The translations under genes were made by a program, and so were the position numbers. From Coleofasciculus sp. B1-GNL1-01 (GTDB lineage Bacteria > Cyanobacteriota > Cyanobacteriia > Cyanobacteriales > Coleofasciculaceae), in assembly GCA_040220235.1 (NCBI GenBank), contig JAVJTO010000094.1: a stretch of 64,000 nucleotides of DNA. The stretch is one strand, 5' to 3'. Shown here piece after piece: positions 540-54,912 of this stretch. The notes below the pieces were generated by a model that was not told where the DNA came from, made no database searches, and saw nothing but the letters and a program-made list of their open reading frames with translations. Position 1 is the first letter of the stretch. Each line of letters opens with the position of its first letter.

Positions 540-3212
540 ATGAAGAAATGGGTGATTGGCATTGCGATCGCGACGACAATCAATACCTTACTAGGTAACC
601 CCAGGGCGTTCGCTCAAACGGTCAACTTAGGGGTGGTGAAAAGTCCGGATAATCAGGCAAATTGGTCAGCTATTACCGATCGCTTGCAGTCAACGGATGT
701 GGATTACTGCGTGGTTGACTTGAGCCAGGTTAATCAACGTTCTGATCTAGGCAATACCCAACTCCTATTTTTACCGAATATTGAACGCCTAGAACCCGAA
801 CACCTGGCGACTCTGCAAGAGTGGATGCGTCAAGGCGGGCGGATCATTGTCAGTGGTGCGGCGGGTGTTGTCTCTCCACCTGAGGTGCGAAATCGTTTGC
901 GATCGCTCTTAGGTGCCTACTGGGGATTTGGTTTGAGTCAGCCGTCTCGATTGGAACGATTATCGATTTCTTCCCCAAGCTGGATACCCGATGCGGGATT
1001 AGTGGGAGAGGTGCAAGGGGGTGTGGTGATTCCCGCCAGCTTGGATGCTGAAACGGCGGCTGTATGGAATCAGTCGGAAAGTCCCCCAGCAGTGGTGACG
1101 ACGGATCAATCGATTTTTTTGGGCTGGCGCTGGGGAGTGGATGGGGAAGACGCCGCCCAGATGGATGTGGTTTGGCTGCAAGCCGCGCTGAGTCATTATA
1201 ATGTTACGCCGATGCCTGGAAAGATGGCGAATTCATCCCCGCCAAATTGTGGTCAAAATCAATCCTTGGCAACGACTCCTGTACCCCCAATCAGACCGGA
1301 GCAAAAACGCCAAGATACCCGCCGCGCAACTAATCCGACTCCTGTTCCCAGCGAAGGCGATCGCTTAGTGCTTCCCGCCCAAACTCCAGCGAACAATTGG
1401 GGAACCCTTACCGCCAATGAAGTGACGGCGATGAGTCGGGAGTTGGAAAACTTAATTGGTCGGGTGGAAAGTACATTATTAAGGGCTAATGCTCATAACA
1501 GTGAGGTTGGCTTGCTCACTCAGGAGAGTGTTGAGTCCTTAGCGGGGATGAGTGCCAAGGAATCAGAACATGGAAATCAACGGCATTCCCATCCAAATCG
1601 AACCACGGTTTCGGCGTTGGCGCAAGCGAGAATTGGCTTAGAAAATTTTCTGGGTGCGGTTGAGCAACAGGACTATACGGCAGCGCGACAACAGTGGATT
1701 AATGCCCGACGGCTACTCTGGGATAATTATCCGATGGAGCGTCAACTTGCCCAACCTGAAATTCGGGCAATTTGGTTGGATCGGGGGACAATTGTCAAGG
1801 CAAAGCGTAAACAGGACTTAGTTAAACTCTTCGATAATCTGGCAAAGGCGGGATTTAATACGGTTTTCTTTGAAACCGTTAACGCCAGTTATCCGATTTA
1901 CCCGAGCCAGGTTGCCCCTGAACAAAATCCTCTGGTGCGCGGCTGGGACCCTCTAGAAGCCGCCGTGGACTTGGCTCATGAACGGGGGATGGAGTTACAT
2001 GCTTGGGTGTGGATTTTTGCGGCGGCGAATCAGCGTCACAATGCTCTATTAAATCAGCCGTTGGATTATCCGGGTCCAGTTTTAGCGGCGCATCCAGATT
2101 GGGCGATTTTTGATAAGCAGGGACGCTTGTTTGCGCCGAATACGAGAAAGGCATTTTTTGATCCCGCCAACCCGGAAGTGCGGGAGTATTTAATGGCGCT
2201 GCTGGAGGAAATTGCCACCCGATATGACGTGGATGGGATTCAACTGGATTATATTCGCTATCCGTTTCAAGATCCGCGCGTGAATCAAACGTATGGGTAT
2301 GGGGTGGCGGCGCGTCAGCAATTTCAGGAACGAACCGGGGTTGATCCGATAGAGGTGTATCCTCGCGATCGCCAATTATGGCAGCAATGGACAGAGTTTC
2401 GTATCCGCCAAGTGGACAGCTTTGTCGCATCAGTATCAGCGCGTCTGTTGTCGCAACGTCCCGATTTGATTCTCTCGGCTGCCGTATTTCCCCTACCCCC
2501 AGCGGAACGTCAGCAACGGTTGCAGCAAAACTGGGAAGAATGGGCAAAGCAGGGGTATATTGATCTAGTTGTACCGATGACTTATGCCTTGGATACCGAA
2601 GGGTTGCACAGTCTTACCCAACCGTTACTCACCGAAGCGACACTCAACCAAGCGTTGCTGATTCCAGGGATTCGTTTGTTGAATTTACCCGATGTTGTGG
2701 CAGTTGACCAAATCCAACTGCTGCGGGATTTACCTGCCAACGGGTATGCTGTGTTTGCGGTTGAGAATCTTAACGAGAATTTACATCGTATTTTCCAACA
2801 GACTCAAGGTCAACCGGAGTCTACCTCAACTGAGCCAATTCCTTACCGTCAGCCATTCCAAGTCGCCAGGGATCGATTTGTGGCGCTGCAACGGGAATGG
2901 AACTTTTTGGTCACGAATGAGCAACTCGCCATTCATCAAGACGCCTTTACTGAATGGGTGGCTCAAACAGAAAAGCTAGATCAGGCGCTCAAGCAACTGG
3001 CTACGGAACCCTCACCGCAGCTTATGCGAACCGCCCAAGCCGCCCTCGCCACGTTCCGATCTCAATTCCCCCAATGGATGCAGCAGCAAGGGATGCGCCA
3101 CCCTTATCAAGTTCAGGTGTGGGAGAATCGGCTGGCAACAATTGAACGGCTATTGAACTATGGTGAACGAACCACTTTACCGAAAAATTCGTCAGATGCG
3201 ATTAAACGTTAA
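540..3212 (+). CDS. Glycosyl hydrolase-like 10 (DUF187/YddW-DigH-like) family protein with signal peptide
   Basis: 890-aa ORF with EIRAIWLD, GFNTVF, ELHAW and YDVDGIQLDYIRYP motifs and an N-terminal signal peptide. Confidence 0.85.
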   Translation: MKKWVIGIAIATTINTLLGNPRAFAQTVNLGVVKSPDNQANWSAITDRLQSTDVDYCVVDLSQVNQRSDLGNTQLLFLPNIERLEPEHLATLQEWMRQGGRIIVSGAAGVVSPPEVRNRLRSLLGAYWGFGLSQPSRLERLSISSPSWIPDAGLVGEVQGGVVIPASLDAETAAVWNQSESPPAVVTTDQSIFLGWRWGVDGEDAAQMDVVWLQAALSHYNVTPMPGKMANSSPPNCGQNQSLATTPVPPIRPEQKRQDTRRATNPTPVPSEGDRLVLPAQTPANNWGTLTANEVTAMSRELENLIGRVESTLLRANAHNSEVGLLTQESVESLAGMSAKESEHGNQRHSHPNRTTVSALAQARIGLENFLGAVEQQDYTAARQQWINARRLLWDNYPMERQLAQPEIRAIWLDRGTIVKAKRKQDLVKLFDNLAKAGFNTVFFETVNASYPIYPSQVAPEQNPLVRGWDPLEAAVDLAHERGMELHAWVWIFAAANQRHNALLNQPLDYPGPVLAAHPDWAIFDKQGRLFAPNTRKAFFDPANPEVREYLMALLEEIATRYDVDGIQLDYIRYPFQDPRVNQTYGYGVAARQQFQERTGVDPIEVYPRDRQLWQQWTEFRIRQVDSFVASVSARLLSQRPDLILSAAVFPLPPAERQQRLQQNWEEWAKQGYIDLVVPMTYALDTEGLHSLTQPLLTEATLNQALLIPGIRLLNLPDVVAVDQIQLLRDLPANGYAVFAVENLNENLHRIFQQTQGQPESTSTEPIPYRQPFQVARDRFVALQREWNFLVTNEQLAIHQDAFTEWVAQTEKLDQALKQLATEPSPQLMRTAQAALATFRSQFPQWMQQQGMRHPYQVQVWENRLATIERLLNYGERTTLPKNSSDAIKR

Positions 3213-3527
3213 TAACTGAAACTAATTGCCGACATTTGGCTTGAGAGCATGGTAGTTTGTGTAAGGTAAACTATTTTGGGCAGCTAAGGCGCTCCCCATG
3301 GGTCTAGCAAGAATTAGCATTCAGAATAGTTGTCTACCCTATCAATCTCAACTGGGGACACAGATTTGATTGTTCCCTGACATCAGATCTGGGTCAAATT
3401 CCTGATGGAGTTGCTTGCCCAAAGGACATCTTAGCTGAGATAACAATAAGGGTTTGGGGGGAGACTCCCAAAAACAGGTTGATGGTTCACGCAGTACTTG
3501 CTCGTTTAAAGTCGAGTTTTTACCTTG

Positions 3528-15900: not shown

Positions 15901-16122
15901 ACTCCTGATTCAACGCCTATATAGATTACTGGAGTTTAGACTAAATCCCAACCTTAATCGCACCTCATCTAAATTTTCCCAGGAATTTTCCTCCAAGCGA
16001 GGGATTCAGTCATCCGATTAGGTTGGTTACATGGGAAATAGACTATAGTTGAATATTTTTCTATACTCAAATAATTAAAATAGAACAAAATACTGTCTTG
16101 TATTAGTTTGAGGTCATTATTT

Positions 16123-16884
16123 ATGAATGTGATACCCAAAACGATCACCACCACAACCTTGGCGGCTGGAGCCTCTGTTCTGGGTTTGGGTGTGTTATCC
16201 CAACCTGCTGCGGCGATTGATTTAACGTTTTTAGGTGAGGGGATTACTCCTCCAGACTTGACTAACTTGAACTGGACGGTGGAAGGGAGAGCGGGTAGCC
16301 AAGGCTTTGCTGACTGGGAGTTTGCCACAGAAGAAGATGGTAATAACCAGACAACCGTTGAGCAATTGAACTGGGACTGGCAAAATGGTCAAGATGTGCT
16401 GTGGCTTTTAACGTGGGATGGGAATACCGTTTCCTTTACCCTGGACGGGGAAACCATTGCGTTCTACCAAGATAATCCACCAGCGAAGTCGTTAGATGCG
16501 TTTTACCTCTGGACACGAGCGACAACGAAATCGGGTACAGTCGATCCGGGTACGAAAATTTTTCTGGAAGTCAACGAGGTGAATGGAATCGAGGTTGATC
16601 CAGTGTCTAGTTTGGCTACTGCACCTGTAGGTGAGGGAAACACGAATATCACAAAGAACTATTTTGCCAGTGATACCTCGATTACCTCTCTTTCCGGTAT
16701 TGCCAATATGAGTTGGCTAGAGAGTTCTCCCAATCCTAACCTAGCGGAGGCTAGTTCGCGAGTTGGCTTGAAAATTGAAGGGTTTTCTACTTCTACTTCA
16801 GTACCGGAACCCGGTACAGTTGCCGGAATAGTGGCGATGGGGATGTTCGGTGTCAGTTCCGTGCTACGGCGTAAAAAAGCTTAG
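16123..16884 (+). CDS. PEP-CTERM sorting-domain protein (possibly choice-of-anchor W type)
   Basis: Signal peptide ending QPAAA, and a C-terminal VPEPGT followed by a TM helix and RRKK. Confidence 0.9.
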   Translation: MNVIPKTITTTTLAAGASVLGLGVLSQPAAAIDLTFLGEGITPPDLTNLNWTVEGRAGSQGFADWEFATEEDGNNQTTVEQLNWDWQNGQDVLWLLTWDGNTVSFTLDGETIAFYQDNPPAKSLDAFYLWTRATTKSGTVDPGTKIFLEVNEVNGIEVDPVSSLATAPVGEGNTNITKNYFASDTSITSLSGIANMSWLESSPNPNLAEASSRVGLKIEGFSTSTSVPEPGTVAGIVAMGMFGVSSVLRRKKA

Positions 16885-16923: not shown

Positions 16924-17233
16924 GTAATCATATTACCTTGGTGAAAAAGATCGATCACGGTCATATCCGTTTTAGGAGTCGTTTTCAAAAATTTACCCAT
17001 TGAGCGGGGTTCAAAAAATGGCTGTAACCCCCTCGCTTGTAAGCATTCCGTTATTTTGTTCGGGGGGAACTTCAGTTTAGACTTAAGCCAACGAGTGTGG
17101 CTTTTTTTAGCGTGGCACGGCGAGAATACCTCGGCTATGCAAAACCTAGACTGGGATGAATTGCCAATGAGAGGAAGCCTGCTTCAATCTTGCACATTAT
17201 GCTATTATATTTTCCATAAATTGCCAAGTAGAT

Positions 17234-18478
17234 ATGATAGTTTTTGAGTTCAAAGTAAAAGCTAAATCTGCTCAATACGCAGCTATTGATGAGGCAATTC
17301 GGACAGCACAGTTTGTCCGAAACAAATGCTTGCGATACTGGATGGATAACCAAGGTATTAACAAGTATGATCTCAACAAATATTGCCGCGTATTAGCCAA
17401 AGAATTTAGCTTTGCTGCGGAACTAAACTCCCAAGCACGTCAGTCGTCTGCTGAACGTGCCTGGAGTGCTATTAGCCGTTTTTACGAAAACTGTCGGAAT
17501 AAATTTAAAAGTCCCAAAGGCTTTCCTCGATTCAAAAAGAACTGCCGCTCAGTCGAATACAAGACAAGTGGTTGGAAACTATCGGAGAATCGGAAAGCTA
17601 TCACCTTTACCGACAAGAAAAGAATAGGGCGACTAAAACTCAAAGGCACTTATGACCTGAACTTCTACCAACTCGACCAAATCAAGCGAGTAAGGTTGGT
17701 TCGACGCGCCGATGGTTATTACGCACAATTTGCGGTTAAAGCCGATCTGAGGATCAAAACCAAACCGACAGGGAGAGCCATCGGCTTAGACCTGGGAATC
17801 AAATACTTTTTGGCTGATTCTAACGGCAAGACTGAGAAATCGCCAAAGTTTTACCGTTGCTGTGAAAGACAGCTAAGTCGAGCTAACCGCAAAAAATCAA
17901 AGAAGTATCGCAGGGGAGCAAAACTACAGTCCAAAAACTATCACAAGTCAAGGAAACGATATGCCCGGAAGCATTTAAGGGTAAGTAGGCAGCGAAAAGA
18001 ATACTGTAAGCGAGTTGCGTATTCCGTTATCCAATCTAACGATTTGGTAGCCTACGTAGACGCGCCAGCGGCTTGCCGAAGGCTAGATTTGAACGTGAAA
18101 GGGCTTGTAAGAAATCGTCACTTGTCTAAATCTATTTCTGATGCTGGTTGGTCTACGTTTCGACGATGGTTGGAATACTTTGGACATAAATACGGAAAAG
18201 TAACTGTAGCGGTTCCACCGCAATACACCTCCCAAGATTGTCCAAAGTGTCATCACAGAGTCAAAAAATCCCTATCTCAACGAACCCATGTTTGTGGCAA
18301 TTGTGGGTTCGTTGAAGACAGAGATATTGCAGCTAGTCTGAATATCCTTCAAAAAGGATTAAGTACGGCAGGGCATGTCGGAAATTACGCTTGGGGAGAC
18401 TTAACCTCTTGGGCGGTTGGAGCAATCCTGTCGTCTAACGGTGAGTCAGAGAACCAAGAATCCTCGTCCATAGTCTAG
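17234..18478 (+). CDS. tnpB: RNA-guided endonuclease TnpB; RuvC-II Glu replaced by an in-frame insertion
   Basis: RuvC-I GLDLG, zinc finger CPKC...CGNC and RuvC-III DRD are present. The expected DLVAYEDLNVKGL reads DLVAY-VDAPAACRRL-DLNVKGL. Confidence 0.92.
   Translation: MIVFEFKVKAKSAQYAAIDEAIRTAQFVRNKCLRYWMDNQGINKYDLNKYCRVLAKEFSFAAELNSQARQSSAERAWSAISRFYENCRNKFKSPKGFPRFKKNCRSVEYKTSGWKLSENRKAITFTDKKRIGRLKLKGTYDLNFYQLDQIKRVRLVRRADGYYAQFAVKADLRIKTKPTGRAIGLDLGIKYFLADSNGKTEKSPKFYRCCERQLSRANRKKSKKYRRGAKLQSKNYHKSRKRYARKHLRVSRQRKEYCKRVAYSVIQSNDLVAYVDAPAACRRLDLNVKGLVRNRHLSKSISDAGWSTFRRWLEYFGHKYGKVTVAVPPQYTSQDCPKCHHRVKKSLSQRTHVCGNCGFVEDRDIAASLNILQKGLSTAGHVGNYAWGDLTSWAVGAILSSNGESENQESSSIV
18056..18085 (+). 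repeat. Small dispersed repeat inserted in tnpB (GTAGACGCGCCAGCGGCTTGCCGAAGGCTA)
   Basis: GC-rich 30 nt in place of one Glu codon (net +27 nt). The 3' end CGAAGGCTA pairs with the upstream TAGCCTACG. Confidence 0.75.
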
Positions 18479-18518
18479 CTATGGGCAGGGAGTGTCAAGC
18501 TGGATACAGGAATAATAA
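18360..18518 (+). ncRNA. Putative TnpB omega-RNA (reRNA) scaffold plus flanking guide
   Basis: Overlaps the tnpB 3' end (ACGCTTGGGGAG...GAACCAAGAATCC, right-end hairpin, TCAA). The guide would be the flank GCTGGATACAGGAATAATAA. The 5' boundary is approximate. Confidence 0.6.
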
Positions 18519-19473: not shown

Positions 19474-19503
19474 ACGCTCAGGCTTGGTATTATAGATAAG
19501 CCT

Positions 19504-19587
19504 GGAGAGGTGGCAGAGTGGTCGAATGCGCTCGACTTGAAATCGAGTGACCCAAAAGGTCCGTGGGTTCGAATCCCACCCTCTCCG
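19504..19587 (+). tRNA. trnS: tRNA-Ser (TGA)
   Basis: GGAGAGG/CCTCTCC acceptor stem, CTCGA-CTTGAAA-TCGAG anticodon arm, long variable arm and GGTTCGAATCC T-arm. Confidence 0.97.
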
Positions 19588-19594
19588 TTCCTGT

Positions 19595-19639
19595 TGGGGA
19601 AGCTGGGGGAGCTGGGGGAGCTGGGGGAGCTGGGGGAGC
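19595..19639. repeat. Nonamer tandem repeat (GCTGGGGGA)n
   Basis: 4-5 units directly after tRNA-Ser; the same unit occurs at 26498-26625 and inverted near 49938-49966. Confidence 0.9.
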
Positions 19640-19649
19640 CGAAATTAAC

Positions 19650-20156
19650 GCAGGCGCGGAAGTCCTCACCCTCAACGATAGTAGGGTGAGGATGGACAGC
19701 GGAAAATTGAGGAACGAAATTTTCAAATTACAATTAACTTTTGGCGCTATAATAACAGTAACCCTCCTAGGTCTACATGGTAATGCATGGGCTAAAGATG
19801 GCATGGGCTAGGTGTGATAGAGATGTAGTCCTTGCGCGTTAATGAACTCGACCACCGTTCGCTTTATAGCGTCCAGAAAAGAATAGCGCAAGATGCCTAA
19901 TGGCATTATTCGGTTAGTACAGACGCTTCAAAAGCGCGTCTCTACAACCGCAAACCGCTATCATCCAAGCGGACTAACAAAATATAACTGTCTGCGGAAG
20001 GCGGACAACTGCCTGTGGACGCTGAGTAAGACCAATAGAGGGCAACCTTTAGAGGCATCGGCGGATGAAGCGGGAAATCCTAAAGACGAATAAGACCGTC
20101 CTTGTTTAGCTAAGTTGGAAGCCCTAACTTCAGCGAAGCAAGTTAGGGTACTTCAC
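19650..20156 (+). mobile_element. Non-autonomous IS200/IS605 derivative retaining both ends and an omega-RNA-like scaffold
   Basis: Left hairpin TCCTCACCCT/AGGGTGAGGA (19663-19692); TGTGATAGAGATGTA, a CDRDV tnpB remnant; GCCTGTGGA...GTAAGACC...GATGAAGCGGGAA scaffold; right hairpin CCCTAACTT/AAGTTAGGG followed by TACTTCAC (20156). Confidence 0.72.
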
Positions 20157-54841: not shown

Positions 54842-54912
54842 GCGGAGACGCATGTTTCCGTTCACTCCTCACACCACACTCCGCCCGGACTATGTTCGGG
54901 CGGTTCCTTTTT
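54842..54912 (+). ncRNA. yfr1: Yfr1 small RNA
   Basis: ACTCCTCACAC core (54864-54874) between a 5' hairpin (GCGGAGAC/GTTTCCGT) and a terminator hairpin (CCGCCCGGAC/GTTCGGGCGG + T-tract), in the canonical guaB-trxA location. A TAACAT -10-like box lies at 54829. Confidence 0.93.

Follow-up and report, generated by a model that had tools for sequence, protein, structure and literature searches.

The window analysed here, a 64,000-nt stretch of contig C94 in the 8.66-Mb assembly of Coleofasciculus sp. B1-GNL1-01 (G000), contains an insertion sequence (IS) of the IS200/IS605 family whose tnpB gene is interrupted by a mini-repeat at the catalytic Glu codon of the RuvC-II motif. The tnpB open reading frame (17234..18478, on the plus strand like the other features of the IS and its immediate flanks) encodes 414 aa with PF01385 and PF07282 and contains no stop or frameshift. 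Where close relatives read NDLVAYEDL, mostly from TAY GAA GAY, its translation reads NDLVAY-VDAPAACRRL-DLNV with the frame kept, which bears out both the reading and the ancestral Glu-Asp codons proposed in an earlier note made from the letters of this DNA. The 30 nt that the note had placed at the Glu codon (18056-18085) have the letters it quoted, but the element itself, delimited by comparison of carriers, comprises the 28 nt at 18057..18084 and replaces only the middle base of that codon. Host bases make up the initial G and the third position of the interrupted codon, and one carrier has G as third base. The net effect is a gain of 27 nt, by which Glu is changed to Val plus nine amino acids. 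The element folds into two hairpins (18058-18073 and 18075-18083; -5.9 kcal/mol with DNA parameters).

In an alignment with the solved TnpB 8bf8, the resulting Val275 falls on the catalytic Glu. As described before, the RuvC-I Asp186 (GLDLG, 17789..17791), the RuvC-III Asp364 (DRD, 18323..18325), the zinc finger CPKC...CGNC (18239..18304) and the right end remain intact. Intact copies also have Asp at position +1, where the inserted Asp276 lies, and this residue therefore does not substitute for the lost Glu. The D-E-D triad is kept in 117 of 120 homologous proteins, and all three exceptions, including the window's protein, have an insert at the Glu codon; such an insert was found in 5 of the 79 top loci. 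Since mutation of any single D-E-D residue is described as abolishing cleavage (10.1101/2023.11.30.569447), the window's TnpB is very probably nuclease-dead. An AlphaFold model of the protein (pLDDT 49, pTM 0.32) was too poor to be used. Independent assemblies and one contig of run X1 contain identical insert letters; among the pieces listed for the read-run contigs, none spans the insert together with the flanks of the window copy. Contigs of the RNA run X8 contain relatives and the empty allele.

The IS begins with a left end and leader (17109..17233) without tnpA, in which a putative hairpin was read by eye at about 17129-17155; just to the left, a host terminator-like hairpin and T run (17085..17108) was found in a terminator scan that was at chance level overall. 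At the other end, a predicted omega-RNA scaffold that overlaps the 3' end of tnpB and includes the right-end hairpin and terminal TCAA (18362..18498, 5' limit approximate) retains 30 of the 32 pairs of a consensus from 71 uninterrupted relatives. Rfam gave no match over the locus, and a promoter scan gave five sites compared to 2.6 +/- 1.8 by chance. The IS boundaries follow from the empty site TTTAT|GCTGG, which is clean in four relatives (G001, G002, G005 and G007; five further loci entered gave no anchor match), and from an X8 contig that connects 17108 to 18499 with TAT between. The tnpB gene was joined to this flank in none of the eight relatives examined. The IS is therefore a strain-level insertion of a tnpA-less IS200/IS605 element. 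The protein itself is nearest to Coleofasciculus-named proteins (85-87% identity). At the left junction of the filled site, 1-3 nt of TTTAT are missing; there is no target duplication, and this eroded junction may immobilise the copy. No second copy of the left end was found in G000, and all 13 Y1 transposase matches in this assembly lie on contigs other than the window's. The right-end hairpin of the window copy (18462-18498) is longer than those of its sisters and resembles ends at C121:21527-21565, C58:17305-17334 and C9:13170-13198 of G000, which are perhaps other IS or end-only elements.

Recurrence of the mini-repeat in tnpB genes

A search of G000 for the 30-mer, exact or with four substitutions, returned one match, the insert itself. 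Of 151 genomes of the order, 23 matched a relaxed family pattern, with three copies in G000 and up to 34 in one genome, and its reversed-pattern control matched none, which places the insert in a dispersed mini-repeat family, as the earlier note had surmised. Family members lie mostly inside other repeats; two of them (L153:1500 and L155:1500, minus strand) lie, judged by eye, in an apparent antisense of a tRNA T-loop. A broader two-hairpin pattern gave 193 matches in G000, about 150 of them in one context resembling repetitive extragenic palindromic (REP) sequences, some as tandem doubles, and one in tnpB.

The window's variant occurs within the genus in 11 copies distributed over seven of nine genomes, and all 11 lie at the Glu codon of tnpB genes that are 53-100% identical to the query; looser matches to it in other genera were outside tnpB in six of six cases. 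As had been suspected, insertion is site-selective, and it has struck the same codon in many tnpB genes. We found 58 tnpB copies in the genus and examined 57, the one not fetched ending before the site; 11 of the 52 that cover the site carry the insert, every one in frame. Insertions of at least 15 nt anywhere in these genes fell at the Glu codon in 11 of 25 cases, with at most three in any other 10-codon bin. Among the 14 other listed members of the 90% cluster of the window's protein, five have the in-frame insert, one has a truncating variant and eight have none.

On the scale of 401 genomes of the order, a filled-site pattern matched 38: tnpB was confirmed under the insert in 19, from five families, 17 matches concerned unrelated genes, one genome (G092) was not fetched, and a decayed remnant in another (G186) was left uncounted. 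Related variants thus occupy this junction in at least 19 genomes. Metagenome matches lay in tnpB in 14 of 26 cases, six in frame and eight frameshifting, and the 12 without a tnpB alignment comprised 11 unrelated sequences and one with the element. Our catalogue of inserts at the Glu codon, drawn from all sequences fetched, holds 70 entries of about 19 variants, with net inserts of 21-27 nt, half of them in frame (35) and half frameshifting (35); in the cases read, the latter lead to a stop within about 12-14 residues. One carrier genome, G187, has the insert at codon 275 in 24 of 72 tnpB copies, 21 of them out of frame (72 of 73 matches were used, and the long-branch copy L337 was dropped from the conservation, dN/dS and gene-half analyses). 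Exact copies of the G187 variant lie at the Glu codon in 17 of 17 cases, and another variant does so in 11 of its 12 matches, from five genomes. Viral contigs gave no exact match. A narrow class-wide pattern, which misses even the variant of G000, matched four of the 401 genomes, all of the same order, and none of the 355 from other orders, which is no evidence of absence there.

The observation thus holds and extends further than first seen, with a repeat resembling the small dispersed repeats (SDRs) of cyanobacteria that has a striking target. Having struck many unrelated tnpB copies across filamentous cyanobacteria, the repeat looks more like a minute parasite of another parasite than like a freshly domesticated gene repressor.

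Other small insertions were encountered in the same genes. G187 contains a second, 24-nt class of mini-elements, inserted in frame, with 11 in the DRD motif (codons 353-356) and others at 106, 146, 229-233 and 377; by eye, the inserts at 353-356 appear to leave Arg-Asp in place. Nested double inserts of 44-48 nt are present in L411, L395 and L320 of G187, and carriers at 275 in this genome have additional small inserts more often than the remaining copies (18 of 24 vs 14 of 48). At many loci, the linker around tnpB codons 87-96 has taken up various kinds of repeat, 18-53 nt long and for the most part in frame, and the bin of codons 90-99 accounts for 15 events over three sets that overlap in part; this is probably a tolerated insertion site. 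In one copy without insert, L252 (G001:C44), RuvC-II reads TAT GTA GAC; this change from Glu to Val may be a point mutation or may have been left behind when an element was lost between the two TAGA repeats.

Target motif and lateral spread

Elements of this class insert after YG and replace one base, and within tnpB they are concentrated at conserved YG^AAGA sites, foremost the RuvC-II Glu-Asp codons, where each lineage has its own variant. The G187 consensus has three GAAGA sites: site 275 is found in 94% of the copies free of events (identity of its window 0.83) and received 24 inserts, the non-catalytic site 255 is present in 74% (identity 0.88) and received 13, and site 174 is present in 26% (identity 0.55) and received two. 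Because inserts track the presence and conservation of GAAGA at these three sites, motif and conservation together predict the hotspots. In the Coleofasciculus genus, 275 is the sole common GAAGA site, and its junction window ranks 7 of 1095 in nucleotide conservation; the conserved target stretch upstream consists of the DLVAY codons and the G of the former Glu codon (18041..18056). All 24 G187 inserts at 275 are of one type and all 13 at 255 of another, although both targets read YG^AAGA. Such strict linkage of variant and site within one genome suggests that inserts were copied from homologous sites already filled.

The complementarity that the earlier note had noticed between the 3' end of the insert and the host sequence just upstream is real, with 7 of 8 pairs when G-T is included, a value of at least 7 being reached at 7 of 1237 gene positions. 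The templating deduced from it did not hold, since the feature is common to the whole repeat class: elements from unrelated contexts pair equally well with the tnpB upstream sequence (5.99 vs 6.01 of 8), and a templated insertion or variant-specific guide was rejected on this ground. Pairing with the class core is better at the tnpB site, with about 6.0 of 8, than at other targets, with about 4.8. Elements in other contexts pair with their own flanks no better than permuted ones (4.67 vs 4.86). Complementarity may make the tnpB site sticky.

Trees and flanks indicate how the repeat is distributed over the genes. In a genus tree built by a quick method with the insert masked (46 of 57 genus copies, short ones dropped), the 10 carriers require 9 changes, 7 of them forced by strongly supported branches, compared to a mean of 9.2 after shuffling; the G187 carriers require 16 changes, 13 of them forced. 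The nearest relatives of each genus carrier are uninterrupted, and in 9 of 10 carriers both gene halves are nearest to empty copies of one subfamily. Flanks are subfamily-specific to within a few bases of the junction and about as variable in carriers as in empty copies, and the comparison of carrier and empty flanks gave no signal of co-conversion of donor flanks. These comparisons show that the variant has crossed between tnpB subfamilies laterally and recently, leaving the host flanks in place. The dN/dS ratios of carriers and empty copies are alike (0.08 vs 0.09; 0.06 vs 0.06), and pN/pS downstream of shared frameshifts is still low (0.03-0.25 in four pairs). As these ratios are low even downstream of frameshifts, the genes diverged first, under selection, and the inserts came later; dN/dS as a test of selection after insertion was discarded as uninformative, frameshifted carriers being equally low. 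L071 and L072, identical frameshifted carriers (tnpB at 2001-3241) at two loci of one assembly, have different 3' flanks, and here a dead element has apparently transposed after insertion.

The explanation that we favour, and consider likely, is that the tnpB of a strain-specific IS was struck by a 28-nt SDR-like mini-repeat that spreads laterally between tnpB paralogs, with single-strand annealing as the proposed route. Its parts differ in strength: we are highly confident of the lateral, site-specific spread, whereas the chances for and against annealing as the mechanism are about even. A rare first landing would be followed by spread between paralogs through short-patch annealing across the most conserved 15 + 6 nt or so, with excised single-stranded IS circles or fragments as donor strands. 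Mismatches in the flanks would be corrected to the recipient, while the looped-out hairpin would escape repair. This logic of mismatch repair and loop-out is that of oligonucleotide recombineering. IS200/IS605 elements are described as passing through single-stranded circles (10.1101/2023.03.14.532601), which makes these a plausible donor pool. The catalytic Glu would be struck because the Glu-Asp codons spell GAAGA within the best-conserved window, and loss of a dispensable, break-making nuclease would carry no host cost and may help the insert to persist. On the best reading, nuclease loss is largely a by-product of repeat spread.

Several observations weigh against this explanation. No transfer intermediate was seen, and the absence of co-conversion fits a target-recognising enzyme as well as it fits annealing with repair. 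The catalytic site has received about double the inserts of the similarly conserved site 255, so that there is scope for selection. Among 10 full-length in-frame genus carriers, none is broken by a stop or otherwise, compared to 5 of 34 empty copies, numbers too few to test. Carriers in G187 are mildly clustered (4-8 of 500 shuffles were as low), and change counts are inflated by block recombination between paralogs, as in L317 and L318, which are near-identical over codons 1-268 with three shared inserts and diverged after the site. Finally, G187 and the 70 catalogued inserts were chosen for carrying the insert and give no frequency estimates.

The movement of repeats of 20-30 nt has long been debated, and the literature consulted, PMC6006769 included, treats their mobility as conjecture. 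The present mini-repeat has a defined and conserved target. Disrupting this target is expected to produce a selectable phenotype, the loss of TnpB cutting, so that transfer could be measured and its genetic requirements mapped. The mini-repeat also shows one way in which the nuclease is lost from a considerable proportion of tnpB copies, as the counts in the genus (11 of 52) and in the one selected genome (24 of 72) illustrate. In-frame carriers have the appearance of full-length proteins and bear the annotation of RNA-guided endonucleases (e.g. P0124), which matters for TnpB mining and for the reading of 'dead' TnpBs as domesticated. In our literature search, no mention was found of repeats concentrated at the catalytic codon of TnpB; Elhai et al. 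2008, which lay outside this search, may list transposase genes as SDR targets. Further literature consulted comprises PMC4390886, PMC5861425, PMC2884548 and PMC3116915.

Alternative readings and fate of the protein

A more speculative reading, to which we give a minor share of probability, sees the 21-28-nt repeats as a micro-element lineage specialised on tnpB that homes through transposon families and is maintained by switching off the nuclease. Such a minimal, non-coding antagonist of TnpB homing would occasionally leave behind a dead but folded binder as a possible starting point for TldR-like regulators.

Host-selected disarming, in which nuclease-killing inserts spread because they spare a typically polyploid host double-strand breaks and transposon homing, is compatible on top of our favoured explanation; as the account of the pattern we consider it unlikely. 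The top hotspot is indeed the catalytic Glu (11 of 25 events in the genus, 24 of 69 in G187), a third hotspot lies in the DRD motif of G187 (11 events), and TnpB is described as cutting empty donor joints and as promoting IS retention (10.1101/2023.03.14.532601). However, selection would favour any inactivating insert, yet the 17 exact copies of the frameshifting G187 variant share one junction, the DRD inserts appear to spare Arg-Asp, and the hotspots are predicted by motif and conservation. Disarming by the host is thus possible and is unproven because the non-catalytic codon 255 is a hotspot as well.

Precise and constant junctions without co-conversion would also be expected if a single-strand transposase encoded by the host or the IS, namely TnpA or a REP-associated tyrosine transposase (RAYT), or another enzyme inserted the element de novo at a degenerate site, aided by pairing of the hairpin-2 core with GCCTAYG. 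The better pairing of the class core with the tnpB site than with other targets and the 13 Y1 transposase matches in G000 are in line with this, as is the occurrence of REPs in frame inside their own transposase genes, described for a subclass in which cyanobacteria abound (PMC6006769). Against it, the strict linkage of variant and site in G187 points to homologous copying, and pairing with the own flank elsewhere does not exceed that of permuted elements. We regard insertion by an enzyme as quite improbable.

The earlier note had seen in the insert a one-step route to a dead RNA-guided DNA binder of the TldR kind, kept for function, for example by binding the leader of the adjacent metallophosphoesterase gene (PF00149, 18526..19473, likely start 18526). 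The frame, both Asp residues, the zinc finger and the omega-RNA fold are intact, all 11 genus carriers are in frame, and the lack of other breaks in these carriers points in the same direction. The nine inserted residues presumably land in the lid region. This region is described as dispensable for repression in a solved TldR (10.64898/2026.09.22.753285), and catalytically dead TnpB as binding DNA (10.1101/2023.03.14.532601), so that DNA binding by the inserted protein is plausible; a maintained function is not indicated. Half of the catalogued inserts shift the frame, the IS is absent from the locus in the relatives examined, carriers differ in their flanks and hence in their guides, and the omega-RNA is equally intact in empty copies (71, mean 0.97) and carriers (26, mean 0.96), which gives no sign of retention. 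The triad has lost just one residue, the right end is retained, and there is no conserved gene association.

The predicted guide (18499..18514) likewise offers no support for a role at the neighbouring gene. A special meaning of a guide lying in the 5' UTR of the metallophosphoesterase gene is not supported, as the guide of any IS200/IS605 element is described as simply its 3' flank (10.1101/2023.03.14.532601). In the search for targets next to a transposon-adjacent motif that had been called for, G000 contained no TTTAT site with at least 8 guide matches and no TTAT site with at least 9, the sole expected guide match being the empty allele. A TldR-like origin kept for function is therefore very improbable, and the product is most likely a decaying passenger; that it is a passenger rather than a functional repressor we hold to be very likely.

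An ancestral tolerated loop of an active subfamily, or an assembly error, has only the intact frame in its favour and is refuted by the polyphyly of the carriers, whose nearest relatives are uninterrupted, and by the same letters in independent assemblies and the X1 contig; Val at position 275 also speaks against it.

Three further features of the window were noted. A 258-aa protein encoded at 16108-16884 has a C-terminal VPEP motif and a hydrophobic tail without Pfam match, and we take it to be PEP-CTERM-like. Downstream of a tRNA-Ser (19503-19588), the region 19596-19700 contains, as read by eye, a 9-nt G-rich tandem repeat followed by a hairpin that resembles the IS200/IS605 left ends of the sister copies, with no adjoining tnpB. 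The small RNA Yfr1 (Rfam RF01116) lies at 54842-54905.

Comparison with known systems

The IS itself resembles described tnpB-only members of the IS200/IS605 family (10.1101/2023.03.14.532601) in its TTTAT-type motif, TCAA end, 3'-flank guide and a tnpA located elsewhere, and it has the two Pfam domains and the omega-RNA overlapping the 3' end of the gene. It departs from the usual elements of this type in its predicted dead nuclease and its eroded left junction.

With TldRs, the window's TnpB shares derivation from TnpB, a broken D-E-D triad, a retained guide scaffold and polyphyletic inactivation. TldRs are described as defined by at least two triad losses, missing transposon ends and fixed neighbours (10.1101/2023.11.30.569447). 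The window's protein has lost only the Glu, by insertion, with D186 and D364 present. Its right end and empty site are defined, although there is no adjoining tnpA and the left junction is eroded. The locus is strain-specific, with tnpB at this flank in none of eight relatives, and unlike TldRs it has no conserved neighbour gene, guide or target.

The closest likeness is to the SDRs of filamentous cyanobacteria, which are equally 21-28 nt long, non-coding and precisely inserted in a short motif, and occur within other repeats or nested in themselves. Elhai et al. 2008 (Genome Res 18:1484) reportedly described SDR1-8 as dispersed repeats of 21-27 nt, with shared secondary structure in SDR4-6 and recombinational spread. 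The net inserts of 21-27 nt are of this reported size and the motif and nesting agree, a likeness by description and not by sequence. According to the citing literature, SDR5 inserts between bases 3 and 4 of HIP1 and comes from Nostocaceae. The present repeat, in contrast, enters tnpB at a degenerate coding motif around the RuvC-II Glu and not at HIP1, and it is found in five families of the order, including a lineage that does not form heterocysts.

REP/REPIN sequences and GTAG repeats with RAYT (PMC3733652 and PMC6006769) are likewise short hairpin repeats with in-frame insertions in genes, including their own transposase. The mini-repeat differs from them in its two small hairpins instead of one stem, in the frameshifts caused by half of its inserts and in having no apparent RAYT link. 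The hairpin stems differ among variants (by eye, with one variant folded). In what looks like GTAG, the first G belongs to the host sequence, and most variants start with TT or A.

Like homing introns and inteins, the mini-repeat enters divergent paralogs of a gene family at their most conserved motif. Compared to these, it has no coding capacity and no evidence of splicing, and it destroys the host gene that it enters instead of restoring it.
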